This document shows, in pieces, positions 33,665 through 40,026 of a stretch of DNA of 64,000 bases. How positions within the stretch are numbered: position 1 is the first letter of the stretch; the number at the start of each line of letters is the position of its first letter. A program made the translations under genes and the position numbers. Source of the stretch: Candidatus Latescibacterota bacterium (lineage in GTDB: Bacteria; Latescibacterota; UBA2968); assembly GCA_038279365.1 (NCBI GenBank), contig JAYODI010000006.1:4354-68353 (forward strand), read 5' to 3'. The notes beneath the pieces were generated by a model. The model was not told where the DNA came from, searched no databases, and saw only the letters and a list, made by a program, of their open reading frames with translations.

Positions 33665-35023
33665 ATGCCTCTCAATGCCATATCCCCACTCGACAATCGC
33701 TACACCAGCCAACTGACCGACCTTGTGCCTCACCTGTCTCATTTTGGCCTCATCTACTACCGCGTGCTCATCGAAATCGAATGGCTCCGTTTTCAGTCCA
33801 AACACCCCGACATCACCCACGTGCGTGCATTCACTGCCGAAGAAGACAAAACCCTCCAAAGCTGGTTGGATAACTTTGATGAAAAACAAGCCCAACGCGT
33901 TACCGCAATAGAACGCGAAACCAACCACGATGTGAAATCGGTTGAATACTATATCAAAGAACTGCTCGCTCCCACCACAATGGCCGATATCAGTGAGGCT
34001 GTTCACTTTGGGTGTACCTCAGAAGATATCAACAATCTCTCACATGCCCTCATGATCAAAAACGCCGTGGAAAAAGTTTGGCGCCCCCAAGCCGAAGCCC
34101 TCACCCAAGCCGTTGTTGAACGCGCCCAAGCCACCCGCGACATTGCCATTTTGGCCCATACACATGGCCAACCCGCCACGCCCACCACAATGGGCAAAGA
34201 AATGGCTGTGTTTGCTTATCGCTGGCAACGCCAACTCAAACAGCTCAACCACGTCGAATACCTCGGCAAATTTAACGGTGCCACAGGCAACTACAACGCC
34301 CACGTGTCGGCCTATCCCAATCTCAATTGGGAAAACATCGCTCGCGAATTCATCGAATCACTCGGCCTCACATTTAACCCACTCACCACACAAATTGATC
34401 CACACGACTACATGGCCGAAGTCTTTCACCTCATGATTCGCTTTAATACCATCACCCTCGACTTTTGCCGAGATATGTGGACCTATATTTCCATGGGCTA
34501 TTTCAAACAAAAGACAGTAGCAGGTGAAGTGGGTTCGTCCACCATGCCCCACAAAGTCAACCCCATCAACTTCGAAAATGCCGAAGCCAACATGGGCATC
34601 AGCACCAGCTTGCTCGAACATCTGGCCACCAAACTTCCCGTTTCGCGACTCCAACGTGATTTGTCAGATTCCTCTGCCATTCGCAACATGGGGCCTGCCA
34701 TTGCACACAGCAGCCTGGCCTTGCAATCGGCACTCAAAGGCTTGGCCAAAACCGAAATTAACGAAGCCCCCATTCAACATCACCTCAACACCGAATGGGC
34801 CGTTCTCGGTGAAGCCATTCAAACCGTAATGCGCAAAGCCGGCATCGCCAATCCTTACGAACAAATGAAAACCCTCACCCGAGGCGTACAAATCACCGAA
34901 CAAGACATACAAGCCTTCATCCAAAAACTAGACATCCCAAAAGAAGACAAAGACTACTTATCAAAACTCACCCCAGCAACCTACATCGGCATCGCTTCAC
35001 AACTGGTCGATCACGTCTCTTAG
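33665..35023 (+). CDS. purB: adenylosuccinate lyase
   Basis: AISPLDNRY, TNHDVKSVEY, HFGCTSEDINN, GSSTMPHKVNPINFEN; GGAG RBS. Confidence 0.98.
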   Translation: MPLNAISPLDNRYTSQLTDLVPHLSHFGLIYYRVLIEIEWLRFQSKHPDITHVRAFTAEEDKTLQSWLDNFDEKQAQRVTAIERETNHDVKSVEYYIKELLAPTTMADISEAVHFGCTSEDINNLSHALMIKNAVEKVWRPQAEALTQAVVERAQATRDIAILAHTHGQPATPTTMGKEMAVFAYRWQRQLKQLNHVEYLGKFNGATGNYNAHVSAYPNLNWENIAREFIESLGLTFNPLTTQIDPHDYMAEVFHLMIRFNTITLDFCRDMWTYISMGYFKQKTVAGEVGSSTMPHKVNPINFENAEANMGISTSLLEHLATKLPVSRLQRDLSDSSAIRNMGPAIAHSSLALQSALKGLAKTEINEAPIQHHLNTEWAVLGEAIQTVMRKAGIANPYEQMKTLTRGVQITEQDIQAFIQKLDIPKEDKDYLSKLTPATYIGIASQLVDHVS

Positions 35024-35045
35024 CAGTTGACTTTGCCCAAAAGAA

Positions 35046-35280
35046 CACACCTCTCCCTAAAACATCTCCCCGGTGGTGTGGGCCGTTGTGCAGTTGGTGC
35101 GGTGGTGGCGGGTGAGTGGTGTGGCGCGTGGAACGCGAGGTGTGATGTGGGAACGGCACGGGCAGGTAAGGGTGGTTTCTGTTAGAAATAAACACTGAGC
35201 AAAATTTAAGCCCCACGCAGTGGCACCTTTCTTTTGCCTACTTTTCTTGGGTGTTCAAGAAAAGTAGGTCGCCGAAGGCA
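35046..35280. repeat. REP-like palindromic element
   Basis: 13-bp hairpin CCTACTTTTCTTG/CAAGAAAAGTAGG (35237-35268), mini-hairpins CCAC-GCA-GTGG and GCC-GAA-GGC, G-rich tract. Confidence 0.6.
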
Positions 35281-35332
35281 AACAATATTAAAAAGTTAAA
35301 AACCTAAAATATTATCTCAAAAAGAGCCCCCA

Positions 35333-35899
35333 ATGCCATTCGAATTCAAACCCCTAAAAATCCCCGACGTCATCCTCATCACCGCCAAACAATTCCCCGA
35401 TGAGCGAGGTTTCTTCATGGAAACCTACAAAAAATCCGACTTCGAAGCCCACGGCATCACGCGCACATTCATTCAAGACAACTACTCTCGCTCTACCTAT
35501 GGTGTCTTGCGCGGTTTGCACTACCAAAAAGATCCCATGGCCCAAGGCAAACTCGTCTCTGTCATCAAGGGCAAAATATTTGATGTCGCCGTAGACATTC
35601 GCCAAGGTTCTCCCTACTTTGGCCAATGGGTTGGCGTTGAACTTTCTGACGAACGCCCCGAACTTCTCTGGGTCCCAGAGGGCTTTGCTCATGGCTTTTG
35701 TGTCATGAGTGAAACGGTCGACTTTACCTACAAGTGCAGCGGTGGTGAATATGCCCCAGACACCTATCGGGGCATCGCCTGGAACGACCCAGACTTGGAT
35801 ATTCCTTGGCCCGTAGAAACCCCCAACTTATCAGAACGCGACACACAACTCCCCCCACTCAAAGATGCCGACAACAATTATGTATACAAATCCGAATAG
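35333..35899 (+). CDS. rfbC: dTDP-4-dehydrorhamnose 3,5-epimerase
   Basis: DERGFFME, QDN.SRS..GVLRGLHYQ, FDVAVDIR.GSP.FG.W, PEGFAHGF. Confidence 0.97.
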   Translation: MPFEFKPLKIPDVILITAKQFPDERGFFMETYKKSDFEAHGITRTFIQDNYSRSTYGVLRGLHYQKDPMAQGKLVSVIKGKIFDVAVDIRQGSPYFGQWVGVELSDERPELLWVPEGFAHGFCVMSETVDFTYKCSGGEYAPDTYRGIAWNDPDLDIPWPVETPNLSERDTQLPPLKDADNNYVYKSE

Positions 35900-36065
35900 A
35901 CGAACCTGCGGGTGTGCGAAAGCGCAAGTTCTCGAAGAGAACGCACCGAAGGTGCCCCGCTGCTCACGTAATAGACGAATAGACGAATAGACGAATAGAC
36001 GAGGATATTTTGATCCGTTGATTCGCAGTTTCGTTAATTCCCTGACTCGTTGATTCGTTGACTCG
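35895..36065. repeat. octamer arrays with an embedded four-way-junction cloverleaf
   Basis: AATAGACG at 35895 and x4 at 35970-36001; TTGATTCG-like x7 at 36010-36065; cloverleaf at 35908-35960. Confidence 0.88.
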
Positions 36066-36120
36066 TCCCCTTTTTAATTTTACATTTTTAATTTTCTTCT
36101 TCCTTTCTCAAGGAGCCTTC

Positions 36121-39100
36121 ATGAGCCTGCTGCACTTCTTCCGTAAACCCGCTCTCTCCCCGGCACAAAAACAAACCTTGCTCAAAAATGCCCGGCAAAA
36201 TGTATCAACCAACATTCAAGACCTTGATACCGAATACTGTTTTAACATCGACGTAAGCACCCCACTCTCTGCCGAACAACAAAATCTACTCGCTTGGCTC
36301 TTGAGAGAAACCTTCGAAGCCGATGCATTTTCCAATCAAAGCTTTTTAAAAGGACACGTGCTCGAAGTGGGCCCACGCCTGAACTTTAGCACTGCCTGGT
36401 CCACCAACGCCACATCCATTTGTCACGCCTGTGGGCTCACACAAATCACACGCATAGAACGCTCGCGTCGCTACCTCATCAAAGGCACGCTCAGTCCGGC
36501 AGAGCAAGAACAGTTCTTGGCTTTGGTTCACGACCGAATGACCGAATGCCCCTATCCAGAACCACTCACAACCTTTGAAACAGGTGTCACCCCAGAGCCC
36601 ACTTTTGAAATCCCGCTCATTGAAGAAGGTCGTGCCGCCTTAGAACGCATCAACCGCGAAATGGGCTTGGCCTTTGACGATTGGGATATGGACTATTACA
36701 CCGATCTGTTTCTCGATCAAATCAAACGCAATCCCACCAATGTCGAGTGTTTTGACATTGCCCAGTCCAACAGCGAACACTGCCGCCATTGGTTTTTTAG
36801 AGGGCGAATGATCATCGACGGGCAAGAAATGCCCGACCACCTCATTGCCATGGTTCAAAAACCACTCAAGGCCAACCCCAACAACAGCACCATCGCCTTC
36901 AAAGACAATTCCAGTGCCATTCGTGGGTACCCCATTCGCACCCTCACTCCCACACAACCCGGAAAACCAGGCGCATTTATACTCACCGACCAAAACTACG
37001 ACATCATCTTTACCGCAGAGACACACAATTTCCCGTCTGGTGTCGCACCGTTTCCCGGTGCCGAAACGGGTACTGGCGGTCGCATTCGCGACGTGCAAGC
37101 CACAGGCCGTGGTGCGCTCGTTGTGGCAGGTACATCGGCCTATTGCGTGGGCAATCTCTACATCCCCGGTTATGATCTTCCCTGGGAAGATCGCACATTC
37201 AAATACCCCGAAAATTTGGCCACACCCTTGCAAATCGAAATTGACGCCAGCAACGGGGCCTCAGACTATGGCAACAAATTTGGCGAACCCATGATTCAGG
37301 GCTACACACGCTCATTTGGTTTGCGCTTGCCCAATGGCGAACGGCGCGAATACATCAAGCCCATCATGTTTAGTGGTGGCATTGGACAAATGGATGCACG
37401 CCACAGCGACAAAGAAAAACCCGAACCCAAAATGCTCGTCACCAAAATTGGTGGTCCCGCCTATCGTATTGGCATGGGCGGTGGTGCCGCATCCAGTATG
37501 GTGCAAGGTGAAAACGAAGCCGAACTCGACTTCAATGCCGTACAACGCGGTGATGCCGAAATGGAACAAAAGCTCAACCGCGTCATTCGCGCCTGTGTCG
37601 AATTGGGCGATGCCAATCCCATTGTCAGCATTCACGACCAAGGTGCCGGTGGCAACTGCAATGTACTTAAAGAAATTGTTGAACCCGAAGGCGCGCGCAT
37701 CGACATTCGCTCGGTTATTGTCGGTGACAACACCTTATCGGTGCTCGAAATTTGGGGTGCCGAATTTCAGGAAAACAGCGCCCTACTCGTTCGCCCCGAA
37801 CACGCCCAATTATTTGATGCCCTCTGCAAACGCGAAAAAATGCTCTACGCATTTGTAGGCGAAGTCACAGGCGATGGCAAAGTGGTCGTTTACGACAGCG
37901 AAACAGACACCACCCCCGTCGATTTGGAACTCGACAAAGTCTTAGGTGATATGCCACAAAAAACATTTAAGTTTGATCGTTTCCCCATCCAAACCCAAGC
38001 GCTCGCATTACCAAACAATCTCACCGTTGTCGATGCCTTAGATCGCGTTTTGCGTTTGGTCTCCGTGGGCTCCAAACGCTTTTTAACCAACAAAGTAGAT
38101 CGCAGCGTCACTGGGCTTATTGCCCAACAACAATGCGTGGGCCCTTTACAAATTACAGCCGCCGATGTGGCCGTTATTGCCCAAAGCCATTTCGCCACCA
38201 CTGGTGCCGCAACCGCCATTGGCGAGCAACCCATTAAAGGCCTCATCGACCCCGCCGCCATGGCCCGTCTTTGTGTGGGTGAAATGCTCACCAACATTGC
38301 TTGGGCAAACATCAGTGCCATTGAAGACATCAAATGCTCTGGCAACTGGATGTGGGCCGCCAAATTACCCGGTGAAGGTGCAGCCCTTTACGATGCTGCC
38401 CAAGCCTTGGTCGATATTCTACTCGACTTGGGCATGGCCATCGACGGGGGCAAAGACAGCCTGTCCATGGCCGCCATTGCACCAGGAGAAAACGGAAAAG
38501 ACGAAACCGTTAAAACACCAGGCACACTGGTGGTTTCAGGTTATGTCACTTGCCCAGACATCAACAAAACGGTCACCCCCGACCTCAAGTTGGCAGATTC
38601 TGGCAAATTGCTCTATATCGACTTGGGCAATGGCAAACACCGTCTGGGTGGATCATCACTGGCCCATGTCTTTCAACAATTGGGTGATACATCTCCCGAT
38701 GTTGATAACGTGGCCCAACTCAAACATGCCATAGAAGCATTACAAATCTGCATTGCAAATGGATGGATTTCAGCGGGTCACGACCGCAGCGATGGTGGGC
38801 TGATCACCACCTTGCTCGAAATGGCTTTTGCTGGCAATTGTGGCATCCAAATCAATCTCACATCTCAAGCCGATCCCATTTCAACTTTGTTTTCCGAAGA
38901 ACTCGGTTTGGTCATCGAAGTCGATCCCACACGTGAAGCCGATGTTGTAAACACTTTCCAAAACGCCAATGTGCCCATTGCCACAATTGGACACGTAACA
39001 TCCGATACGGCCATTCACGTTTCAGTTAATGCCACAACAGTGCTGCAAGCCAATATGACCGACCTGCGCAACACGTGGGAAGCCACCAGTTTCCAACTCG

Positions 39101-40026
39101 AGCGCCGCCAAACCAATCCAGAATGTGTCGATCAAGAAGAAGAAGGCTTGGTCACCCGCAGCGCACCACCTTATCAACTCACATTCACTCCCACGCCTAC
39201 ATCCAATGAAATACTTTCGGCCAAAGACAAACCCAAAGTCGCCATCATTCGCGAAGAAGGCAGCAATGGTGATCGCGAAATGACGTCTGCCTTTTTTGCC
39301 GCAGGCTTTGAACCCTGGGATGTGACCATGTCCGATCTTTTAAATGGCTTGGTCACACTCGATGCATTTCGTGGTGTTGTTTTTGTGGGTGGATTTAGTT
39401 ATGCCGATGTGCTCGATTCCGCCAAAGGCTGGGCAGGTGTCATTCGTTTCAATGAAAACCTTTGGACACAGTTCAATGCCTTTTACAATCGCCCAGACAC
39501 CTTTTCACTCGGCGTCTGCAACGGGTGCCAACTTATGGCCTTATTGGGTTGGGTGCCATTTTCTGGCCTTGAAGATACCATTCAGCCCCGTTTCATTCAC
39601 AATGCTTCAGGTCGTTTTGAATCGCGTTTTTCCACGCTTCAAGTTCAAGAAAGCCCATCCATTATGCTCAAAAATATGGCAGGGTCATCGTTGGGCGTCT
39701 GGGTGGCGCACGGTGAAGGCCAAGCCTTTTTTCCCAACAAAGACATTCTCAATCGCGTTCAAAACGAAAACTTGGTGCCCGTCAGTTATGTCGATGACAA
39801 CAATGCCCCTACCGAATCTTATCCCTTTAACCCCAATGGTTCACCCAATGGCATAGCAGGCCTCTGTTCTCCCGATGGCCGTCACTTGGCCATGATGCCC
39901 CACCCCGAACGCGCCTTTCTCAAATGGCAATGGGGATGGATGCCCACCGATTGGAAAAATAACCTGCAAGCTTCTCCTTGGTTGCAAATGTTTCAAAATG
40001 CACGCGCCTGGTGTGACACCATCTAA
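36121..40026 (+). CDS. purL: phosphoribosylformylglycinamidine synthase (large single-chain type)
   Basis: EVGPR, QSNSEHCRH, ETHNFP, GAETGTGGRIRD, GGKDSLSM, GVCNGCQ, MMPHPER; AAGGAG RBS. Confidence 0.98.
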   Translation: MSLLHFFRKPALSPAQKQTLLKNARQNVSTNIQDLDTEYCFNIDVSTPLSAEQQNLLAWLLRETFEADAFSNQSFLKGHVLEVGPRLNFSTAWSTNATSICHACGLTQITRIERSRRYLIKGTLSPAEQEQFLALVHDRMTECPYPEPLTTFETGVTPEPTFEIPLIEEGRAALERINREMGLAFDDWDMDYYTDLFLDQIKRNPTNVECFDIAQSNSEHCRHWFFRGRMIIDGQEMPDHLIAMVQKPLKANPNNSTIAFKDNSSAIRGYPIRTLTPTQPGKPGAFILTDQNYDIIFTAETHNFPSGVAPFPGAETGTGGRIRDVQATGRGALVVAGTSAYCVGNLYIPGYDLPWEDRTFKYPENLATPLQIEIDASNGASDYGNKFGEPMIQGYTRSFGLRLPNGERREYIKPIMFSGGIGQMDARHSDKEKPEPKMLVTKIGGPAYRIGMGGGAASSMVQGENEAELDFNAVQRGDAEMEQKLNRVIRACVELGDANPIVSIHDQGAGGNCNVLKEIVEPEGARIDIRSVIVGDNTLSVLEIWGAEFQENSALLVRPEHAQLFDALCKREKMLYAFVGEVTGDGKVVVYDSETDTTPVDLELDKVLGDMPQKTFKFDRFPIQTQALALPNNLTVVDALDRVLRLVSVGSKRFLTNKVDRSVTGLIAQQQCVGPLQITAADVAVIAQSHFATTGAATAIGEQPIKGLIDPAAMARLCVGEMLTNIAWANISAIEDIKCSGNWMWAAKLPGEGAALYDAAQALVDILLDLGMAIDGGKDSLSMAAIAPGENGKDETVKTPGTLVVSGYVTCPDINKTVTPDLKLADSGKLLYIDLGNGKHRLGGSSLAHVFQQLGDTSPDVDNVAQLKHAIEALQICIANGWISAGHDRSDGGLITTLLEMAFAGNCGIQINLTSQADPISTLFSEELGLVIEVDPTREADVVNTFQNANVPIATIGHVTSDTAIHVSVNATTVLQANMTDLRNTWEATSFQLERRQTNPECVDQEEEGLVTRSAPPYQLTFTPTPTSNEILSAKDKPKVAIIREEGSNGDREMTSAFFAAGFEPWDVTMSDLLNGLVTLDAFRGVVFVGGFSYADVLDSAKGWAGVIRFNENLWTQFNAFYNRPDTFSLGVCNGCQLMALLGWVPFSGLEDTIQPRFIHNASGRFESRFSTLQVQESPSIMLKNMAGSSLGVWVAHGEGQAFFPNKDILNRVQNENLVPVSYVDDNNAPTESYPFNPNGSPNGIAGLCSPDGRHLAMMPHPERAFLKWQWGWMPTDWKNNLQASPWLQMFQNARAWCDTI

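Follow-up and report, generated by a model that had tools for sequence, protein, structure and literature searches.

A four-way-junction repeat within octamer arrays of a Latescibacterota family as a candidate mobile DNA module

Small structured intergenic repeats such as repetitive extragenic palindromes (REPs), bacterial interspersed mosaic elements (BIMEs), Correia and BOX elements are common; how they move is poorly understood, and those on record are either simple hairpins or long inverted repeats. Elements of the IS200/IS605 type insert in one orientation 3' of a short sequence without target duplication, carry folded subterminal structures and move by "peel and paste" transposition of single-stranded DNA. 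Here we examine a 53-nt four-way junction, called the cloverleaf below, at positions 35908..35960 of a 64,000-nt stretch of contig JAYODI010000006.1 from a Candidatus Latescibacterota bacterium; this whole stretch is termed the window, and the genome from which it comes (G000) measures 6.03 Mb. We consider that there is about an even chance that a small non-autonomous mobile DNA module, lodged inside octamer arrays and moved as single-stranded DNA, has the cloverleaf as its folded core. It is equally a matter of balanced judgement that this module shares the arrays with at least one other, within a system of mosaic intergenic repeats that belongs to one family of uncultured Latescibacterota. 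No description of the cloverleaf element was found in the literature searched.

Two further systems invite comparison. The inverted terminal repeat of adeno-associated virus is a T-shaped three-way junction in which a closing stem bears small palindromes with 3-nt loops; this branched structure arises in single-stranded DNA and is read by Rep, a nicking HUH protein, beside tandem short repeats; being the terminus of a eukaryotic virus, with a three-way junction and no sequence relation to the cloverleaf, it serves as an analogy of mechanism only. In cyanobacteria, Elhai and co-workers reportedly described in 2008 very small, nested dispersed repeats formed by single hairpins of 21-27 nt, together with arrays of heptamer short tandemly repeated repetitive sequences. 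These resemble the present case by description (tiny hairpins, nesting, short tandem arrays) but belong to another phylum, have other sequences and contrast with a four-way junction of 58 nt. The initial annotation of the locus had leaned towards such a cyanobacterial setting, which was mistaken, as the closest named record for the adjoining RfbC protein (88% identity) is labelled as a Latescibacterota metagenome-assembled genome (MAG). As for REPs, those tagged by GTAG or CGTC are single stem-loops with stems of 5-13 bp according to Table 1 of PMC3733652, a paper in which the words "cloverleaf" and "nested" do not occur. Finally, GCGNAGC and GCGNNAGC are presented in PMC13037366 as DNA mini-hairpin motifs, with a melting temperature near 80 °C for the DNA forms and of 39 °C for r(GCGAAAGC), and they are far more stable as DNA than in their RNA versions (PMC13037366; PMC3201870). 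According to PMC13037366 they also bind single-stranded DNA-binding protein (SSB) poorly and are found at single-strand recognition sites, namely the G4 origin, plasmid ssiA and the N4 promoters.

All features of the window are given on the + strand. The closing stem of the cloverleaf, GCGGG/CCCGC (35908-35912 with 35956-35960), holds three hairpins, and A35927 is the sole unpaired junction base. Hairpin 1, TGTGC-GAAA-GCGCA (35913..35926), has one T.G wobble and contains GCGAAAGC, where most other copies have GCGAAGC; it is followed by hairpin 2, GTTCTC-GAA-GAGAAC (35928..35942), and hairpin 3, GCACC-GAA-GGTGC (35943..35955). The closing stem can be extended to C35906-G35962 (35906-35912 with 35956-35962) over a T.T mismatch at 35907/35961, a pair that is A-T in divergent copies, where the stem counts 7 bp. 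Based on the RNA and DNA folds, on covariation in 68 copies and on RNAalifold, the module proper is placed at 35905..35962. Letters, stems and loops are exactly those of the initial annotation, and the minimum-free-energy fold is the same cloverleaf with RNA parameters (-26.8 kcal/mol) and with DNA parameters (-15.9 kcal/mol), each with z = -4.3 and 0 of 200 shuffles equal. The complementary strand folds equally well with DNA parameters. A strict Watson-Crick descriptor (closing stem of at least 4 bp, three hairpins of at least 4 bp, loops of 3-5 nt, at most 1 nt per junction) run over the 6.03-Mb genome found 5 sites, comprising 3 copies of the family and 2 minimal 4/4/4/4-bp cases; the window copy is missed because of its T.G wobble. 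Given that so few sites exist in the genome, the cloverleaf is far beyond chance.

The element resembles no familiar structured RNA. ARAGORN returned 0 tRNA or tmRNA genes in 35700-36200, in agreement with the earlier statement that the fold is not a tRNA. A search of Rfam with positions 35000-37000 and E values up to 10 gave chance matches elsewhere and none overlapping the element. A self-cleaving ribozyme with a multi-way junction (hammerhead, hairpin, twister-sister) was also considered and rejected, since the junction has 0-1 unpaired bases, there are no internal loops and Rfam gives no match.

The copies of the element vary in a way that keeps the fold. In an alignment of 68 copies fitted to the covariance model, the four helices are 87-97% paired and both partners have changed in 16 of the 23 pairs. 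Covariation attains a score of 0.177, compared with 0.099 in shuffles (0 of 500 reach 0.177) and 0.045-0.054 when the partners are slid by 1-3 columns. Moreover, RNAalifold arrives at this cloverleaf from a plain MAFFT alignment of 11 copies of the own genome, which is not structure-fitted, and 9 of 26 pairs show compensatory changes. Contig C125 has a copy in which all four helices are replaced (GCAGG/CCTGC, TGCC/GGCA, ATTTCC/GGAAAT and GCAGC/GCTGC). Hairpin 2 has 96.7% of its alignment cells paired, with changes on both sides in 4 of 6 pairs, and hairpin 3 has 96.2%. A putative fourth hairpin in the tail (CTCAC/GCGAG) is paired in 64% of cells, and an alternative inner mini-hairpin, GC-GAA-GC, fits some copies. 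The compensatory changes occur in all four helices and across subfamilies; therefore, the fold itself is selected.

The loops are conserved as well. Among the copies whose closing pair is aligned, 48 of 61 have a c(GNA)g loop in hairpin 2 and 50 of 63 in hairpin 3 (68 examined in both cases), GNA being GAA, GCA or GTA closed by C-G. Within these loops the G is conserved at 0.87-0.90 and the A at 0.97-0.98, against 0.52-0.62 for the middle base (for hairpin 2, G 0.90, N 0.52 and A 0.98). The GCGAAAGC or GCGAAGC of hairpin 1, the C-GNA-G loops and the clustering of hairpins are shared with the d(GCGNAGC)/d(GCGNNAGC) mini-hairpin sites, whereas the known sites set out in PMC13037366 are single phage or plasmid origins or promoters, and neither dispersed repeats nor closed four-way junctions.

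The cloverleaf recurs throughout its own genome. BLAST and nhmmer located 11 loci, one of which harbours a 12th copy nested within it. The common unit is about 96 nt, with modules ranging from about 80 to 96 nt, and reads as follows: AATAGACGAA, then [C/T]C[A/T]GCGGG, the three hairpins, CCCGCTG, the tail CTC-ACGAGCG(A/T)AGCGAGT, [C/A]AT and the next octamer. Short variants devoid of hairpins 2 and 3 also exist (L182-L185, L149). A covariance model, R1, was run against the 31 genomes of the family f1, the own genome included, and matched in six of them with 11, 7, 6, 43, 1 and 1 copies, the highest number being that of the sister-genus genome G005; there was no match in the other 25 genomes of the 31, many of them incomplete. 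A separate set of 151 genomes from the phylum (30 in f1 and 121 in 13 other families) gave matches in those six genomes alone, with 0 of 121 outside f1, many of the genomes again being incomplete. Among the genomes searched, the module is a dispersed repeat of one Latescibacterota family. It is thus neither a lone copy nor part of a known Rfam family, the two outcomes that the initial annotation had held to speak against its proposal. An exact 20-mer scan of public genome contigs gave two matches, both chance matches in coding sequence of unrelated MAGs, and among viral contigs a 19-mer scan picked out a single locus, which has no match to the covariance model. The same type of 19-mer scan on metagenome contigs yielded 34 loci, of which 5 are true copies and 1 is marginal (E = 0.004); no autonomous element was found among these loci.

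The position of the copies follows a readable rule. CGAA lies directly 5' of the module in 56 of the 67 copies in which the 5' end is present, and TGAA in 8 (68 aligned), and the module takes a single orientation relative to CGAA. This CGAA belongs either to the constant part of an octamer (AATNNNCG-AAT) within arrays of (AATNNNCG)n or to the C-GAA-G loop of another copy. The module of G005 keeps this register, within the constant CGAAT, even though it is flanked by octamers of other types (AATCAGCG, AATCTGCG, AATCGGCG). In the window, the left octamer AATAGACG followed by AA (35895..35904) ends in CGAA directly before the module; AATAGACG is GACGAATA read in another register. Furthermore, all nested copies begin directly after the CGAA of a host hairpin loop. 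On contig C109 of the own genome a divergent copy sits in the hairpin-3 loop of a host copy that is intact on both sides. In G005, L169, L186 and their relatives have an insertion in the hairpin-2 loop and L172 in the hairpin-3 loop, the host continuing beyond. In L171/L175 a 5' fragment ends at the CGAA of the hairpin-1 loop and a full copy comes next, the 3' part of the host not being seen. Each loop presents the CGAA target anew, which would explain why copies are found inserted in one another.

There is no target-site duplication, given that the flank is not repeated after the nested copies; the octamers on both sides of array copies are thus the array itself. A duplication of 8-9 bp, which the identical octamers on both sides had suggested, was ruled out by the nested copies, which have none. 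The 3' boundary differs between settings, with GAGTCA|T where a copy sits in an array and GAGTAACAT(A/T) or GAGTCAC where it is nested. Given the single orientation, the insertion 3' of a fixed sequence, the lack of duplication and the preserved structure, the cloverleaf is interpreted as the putative recognition fold of a non-autonomous module of single-stranded DNA.

Comparison between genomes shows a turnover of the element. The rfbC-purL junction, which carries the cloverleaf in the window, measures about 45 nt in the named relative L044 and in the same-genus genome G002 and about 40 nt in the sister genus (G005), with no repeat in any of the three. Ten cloverleaf loci of G001/G002 have an orthologous site in the own genome, and none of these sites has a cloverleaf: 4 hold an array with another module, module A, 1 a bare array and 5 no composite. 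Hence, 0 of the 11 within-genus sites (the window site and the 10 loci of G001/G002) have the cloverleaf in both genomes. Since orthologous sites contain module A, a bare array or nothing, modules come and go independently of arrays, and arrays come and go too. The initial annotation had proposed a minimal mobile module inserted into the array, and had suggested looking for relatives in which the array lacks the insert. The bare or differently filled arrays just described, the empty sites, the copies in relatives and the nesting in loops all support that proposal.

A different explanation of the same distribution is that the cloverleaf is a passive passenger, spread by gene conversion or unequal recombination of arrays, that it is the arrays or composites which move, and that small palindromes stacked together give the fold incidentally. 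All copies that are not nested occupy one and the same register in or next to an octamer unit, chimeric copies exist (L168, L178), whole composites are gained and lost at orthologous sites, and the short variants without hairpins 2 and 3 persist, all of which speak for such passive spread. However, precise insertions into 3-nt loops, with the host continuing beyond, cannot arise from array exchange; the compensatory changes in four helices imply a selected fold, and orthologous arrays hold the cloverleaf, module A or nothing. We consider the passenger explanation quite improbable, and retain the mobile module.

The arrays themselves belong to larger composites. At least 30 composites of one design are present in the own genome, for instance at C57:11896-11975 and C134:33056-33183. 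In each, a left array of up to 16 octamers similar to AATAGACG is followed by a spacer and then by an arm of inverted, degenerate units of period 8 (CGTTGATT, CGCAGTTT, CGCTGATT). The 3'-tail motif ACGAGCGWAGCGAGT has 47 matches in the genome, one of which is a chance match in coding sequence, and the tail-bearing inserts comprise 12 cloverleaves, about 30 copies of module A and a few copies of a third module (CACAGTGAACG...CCTTA plus the tail; C74, C85, C169). Module A is 32 nt long and consists of a single hairpin, AGCC-GNA-GGCT, which covaries to AGGC-GAA-GCCT, and of the 3' tail of the cloverleaf; examples are C31:6-61, C34:37944-38060, C98, C163:2371-2426 and about 25 others. It lies between octamer units of either arm, and its orientation is always that of the strand carrying CGAAT. 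Both the cloverleaf and module A open with CAGC..., close with ...GCT and carry one common tail; between start and end, module A has a triloop and the cloverleaf three further hairpins. The two look like relatives. On the reverse strand module A begins GTAGCC, the cloverleaf begins GCAGCGGG and the octamer reads CGTCTATT, starting with CGTC. A long version with a gene between the ends was sought and discarded, as all 46 of the 46 genuine tail motifs have module A, B or C at most about 110 nt upstream. Arrays, spacer, inverted arm and modules A, B and C are combined in various ways at 30 or more loci, and the composites fit the description of BIME-type mosaic repeats, which is a descriptive class and not a homologous family. 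Many of the arrays are at contig ends or beside runs of N.

Several observations bear on the question of DNA or RNA. The two flanking open reading frames (ORFs), taken from crude calls of at least 100 aa, are both on the strand of the copy in 17 cases and both on the opposite strand in 18. Copies of genus g1 are mostly of the "same" kind and those of G005 mostly "opposite", a contrast explained by the placement of the modules in opposite arms of a gene-oriented composite. From this opposite-arm placement and the 17 versus 18 counts, it follows that the orientation of the module follows the strand reading CGAAT and not transcription. The composites themselves are oriented with their flanking ORFs (16 same/same versus 3 opposite/opposite, with the same crude calls). 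Mismatches of the G.T/T.G type occupy 46 alignment cells versus 48 for A.C/C.A. Furthermore, private or rare variants occur at a rate of 0.019 in stem columns, 0.016 in unpaired columns and 0.015 in the flanks. Private variants being as frequent in stems as elsewhere, and taking the other strand results together, individual copies therefore decay neutrally while the spreading lineages keep the fold. This fits selection that operates when copies are made, such as a mobile element would undergo if its structure were what the machinery reads.

These data also bear on a cis-acting RNA structure, that is a co-transcribed mRNA stabiliser, RNase target or cistron spacer of the kind proposed for REP, BOX and Correia elements. 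The rfbC-purL junction is probably an operon junction, the RNA fold is strong, the composites are gene-oriented and a purely structural role of the RNA would work in either orientation. In addition, a 171-nt metatranscriptome contig is identical to 35822-35992 with no difference, running from rfbC through the cloverleaf and ending in the array. Transcription of the region together with rfbC is therefore probable, although this is weak evidence as RNA libraries can hold DNA. Set against this are the even split of cloverleaf orientations and the loops of G005, where the RNA would mostly carry UNC and yet G1 and A3 remain conserved on the element's own strand. Stems show no depletion of private mutations, mismatches of the G.U type are not favoured over A.C, Rfam has no match up to E = 10, the + strand has no terminator-like site and none of the 11 within-genus sites is shared. 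A role as RNA is thus unlikely in our view. For the "ssDNA/RNA module" of the initial annotation, the gene orientation in either direction and the GNA loops on the element's own strand make the evidence lean towards DNA over RNA.

If DNA is what is read, the reader could also belong to the host, which corresponds to the junction-mimicking recognition site raised in the initial annotation. The junction, or SSB-resistant mini-hairpins on the lagging-strand template, would then be bound by a junction protein or resolvase, by a site-specific recombinase, or by a primase or primosome as in single-strand initiation. The junction is almost devoid of unpaired bases, both strands can fold as a cruciform requires, and the loop motifs are like those which, according to PMC13037366, are read by primases or a polymerase at the G4 origin, plasmid ssiA and the N4 promoters. 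Such a host signal is nevertheless the least probable of the explanations weighed here, since positions are not conserved between species of one genus, the copy number ranges from 0 to 43 within the family, stems decay freely at single loci and the variants without hairpins 2 and 3 persist.

Returning to the mobile module, the mechanism that we propose involves an enzyme acting in trans, by which the module would be copied or moved as single-stranded DNA. This enzyme would read the folded structure and cut beside a short specific sequence, as HUH/Y1 enzymes do with IS200/IS605 ends and REPs. The GNA triloops would give the top strand compact hairpins, of the kind known in single-stranded DNA and poorly bound by SSB. 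PF01797 (Y1_Tnp) genes, which would be natural candidates, are present in 19 of the 31 f1 genomes.

A number of points weigh against this proposal. No cognate enzyme was found. The presence of PF01797 is unrelated to that of the cloverleaf: G002 has cloverleaves without a match, and many genomes show the reverse. In assemblies that are 82-98% complete, no Y1 gene adjoins the module or correlates with it. The Y1 genes of the own genome, on contigs C91 and C63, are flanked by other palindromes, and that of G005 is not flanked by cloverleaf sequence. With neither correlation nor adjacency in these assemblies, Y1/RAYT (REP-associated tyrosine transposase) proteins were rejected as the partner enzyme. 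No excision or insertion joints and no excised forms were seen in four sequencing runs, of which contigs only were used, and these are blind to rare forms and uninformative where cover is lacking. The 3' boundary of the module is not sharply defined. The chimeras L168 and L178 imply that recombination between copies also shapes the family and, with every non-nested copy in or beside an octamer unit, gene conversion of arrays could spread the module without transposition. Folding energies separate neither the two strands nor DNA from RNA. Finally, the fitting of the 68 copies to the model favours pairing, and the orientation counts come from ORF calls and not from gene prediction.

The two Y1/RAYT-like genes of the own genome have surroundings of their own. 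The one at C63:18514-18780 has upstream of it a GC-rich palindrome and then CTAC, the palindrome thus being GTAG-tagged on the other strand, and the one on C91 (L198 1200-1440) is followed by three copies of the hairpin repeat AAGTCC-TTTG-GGACTT. Both genes with their repeats look like separate REP-type systems.

A bolder version of the proposal is that the cloverleaf represents a new class of mobile single-stranded DNA. The recognition structure would be a closed four-way junction of GNA-capped mini-hairpins, and the element would be moved by an enzyme so far overlooked as a transposase, perhaps a nuclease specific for junctions or hairpins. The element would nest by virtue of its own CGAA in each loop, and the arrays would be landing pads or a by-product. 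We regard this version as doubtful, and set it well below the mobile module as such.

Compared with the systems from which we started, the element is in its working most like REP/BIME repeats and IS200-type derivatives, and it lacks both the single stem-loop of a REP and the terminal inverted repeats and duplication of a classical miniature inverted-repeat transposable element (MITE). With REP, REPIN and BIME repeats and their RAYT it has in common short, GC-rich, structured intergenic repeats that are multi-copy, patchy and mosaic with other motifs. The reverse complement of module A starts with GTAG and that of the octamer with CGTC. The cloverleaf module is unlike a REP in being a four-way junction of 53-58 nt with a tail, set in 8-base arrays and self-nesting, while module A, at 32 nt with one hairpin, would have the single stem-loop of a REP. 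No RAYT gene flanked by the module and no co-occurrence was found among the 31 f1 genomes. The REPs of PMC3733652 are thought to be handled as folded single-stranded DNA beside a conserved tetranucleotide, a handling that is proposed here for the module too. With IS200/IS605 elements the module shares its place 3' of a fixed sequence, in one orientation and without duplication, both at CGAA in general and in three kinds of nested copy; the folded structures on which those elements depend would be a further point in common. It is unlike them in that there is no transposase gene between its ends or nearby, that it is one closed multi-branch fold with a tail and that its target would be CGAA; the ends of the IS200/IS605 copy in G005 are unrelated in sequence to the cloverleaf. 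A classical DDE-derived MITE was rejected because the only inverted ends are those of the 7-bp closing stem and there is no target duplication.

In the window, the whole composite repeat covers about 175 nt (35893..36067) and consists of the left octamer, the cloverleaf, four octamers, a spacer and the inverted degenerate period-8 right arm. The initial annotation was right about the cloverleaf and about its place between octamer copies, with AATAGACG at 35895-35902 and four units further on. It overlooked the 3' tail common to a second module, the deletion in that tail and the inverted right arm. The remnant of the tail (CTCACG..., 35963..35969) was recognised by alignment with other copies. 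Compared to these, the window copy has an 11-nt deletion which removes most of the fourth hairpin, ACGAGCGAAGCGAGT, and explains why the conserved tail is missing from the segment flagged at first. The left arm continues with four tandem AATAGACG units (35970..36001), and the spacer AGGATATTTTGA (36002..36013), similar to the GGTTTTGAT and AATCAAAACCTATT of other composites, leads to the right arm (36014..36067), whose degenerate inverted period-8 units CGTTGATT, CGCAGTTT and CGTTGACT pair imperfectly with the left arm. Taken whole, the composite forms a long, imperfect hairpin from which the cloverleaf branches off to one side (z about -2.2 to -2.3). In the sequencing runs, the DNA contigs break at the repeat.

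The gene upstream, rfbC (35333..35899), encodes dTDP-4-dehydrorhamnose 3,5-epimerase (PF00908, E = 1.2e-71). Its stop codon TAG (35897-35899) is inside the first octamer, and its last three codons and stop, at or inside the left edge of the repeat, are unlike those of relatives and fused into that octamer. The protein ends in ...NYVYKSE* in the window versus ...NYVYSPK* in a same-genus relative at the empty site. Downstream lies purL (36121..40026), the large FGAM synthase with matches to PF13507, PF22689, PF02769, PF18076 and PF18072. No intrinsic terminator was found after the composite on the + strand. Upstream of purL, at 36058-36086, a -35-like TTGACT derived from the right-arm unit CGTTGACT is followed after 17 nt by TACATT; this is a match to the consensus only, and the arrays might act as donors of promoter elements. 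A strong hairpin, CCTACTTTTCTTG...CAAGAAAAGTAGG, is found between the preceding gene and rfbC (35236-35270), with chance microRNA-like matches only in Rfam.

Other repeats were encountered beside the composites. A separate element occurs in G005 (for example L158, L162 and L143); its terminal inverted repeats measure about 33 nt (GGGTTCATCCAGAAATAA... / ...TTATAGACAGACCC), it has TTA or TAA on its flanks, and its end motifs have 91 and 44 matches in the own genome. Carriage of the cloverleaf by this element was rejected, as only 13 of 42 G005 copies have one within 300 nt and 29 have none. Beside another composite, a conserved G-rich hairpin with CTGATGAG ... GAAAC, like a hammerhead core, is present in G002 (L126 ~1600-1660) and at the orthologous site of the own genome (C163 ~2500-2560); Rfam has no match for it with E up to 0.1. 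On contig C124 of the own genome (L242 ~1430-1880), the genome's only PF05635 gene, for a 23S rRNA intervening-sequence protein, is boxed by the inverted heptamers (GGCAAAT)n and (ATTTGCC)n. A link of this gene to the octamer arrays was dismissed given that it is boxed by heptamers and not octamers.

What is new here is a compact four-way junction backed by covariation, together with a readable insertion rule, natural nesting and differing modules in sister arrays. Recognition of the fold versus recognition of the sequence can be tested directly with oligonucleotides, and DNA mini-hairpin motifs are seen here used in bulk in a bacterial chromosome. The finding is of interest for the fields of mobile DNA and nucleic-acid structure, and comes from an uncultured lineage. 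In this phylum, the octamer repeats break assemblies and leave many arrays at contig ends. The cloverleaf family offers a new example for the old puzzle of short tandem intergenic arrays and, if it does form a new class of mobile single-stranded DNA, it would open a mechanistic way into the short tandem arrays between bacterial genes, which are so far unexplained.

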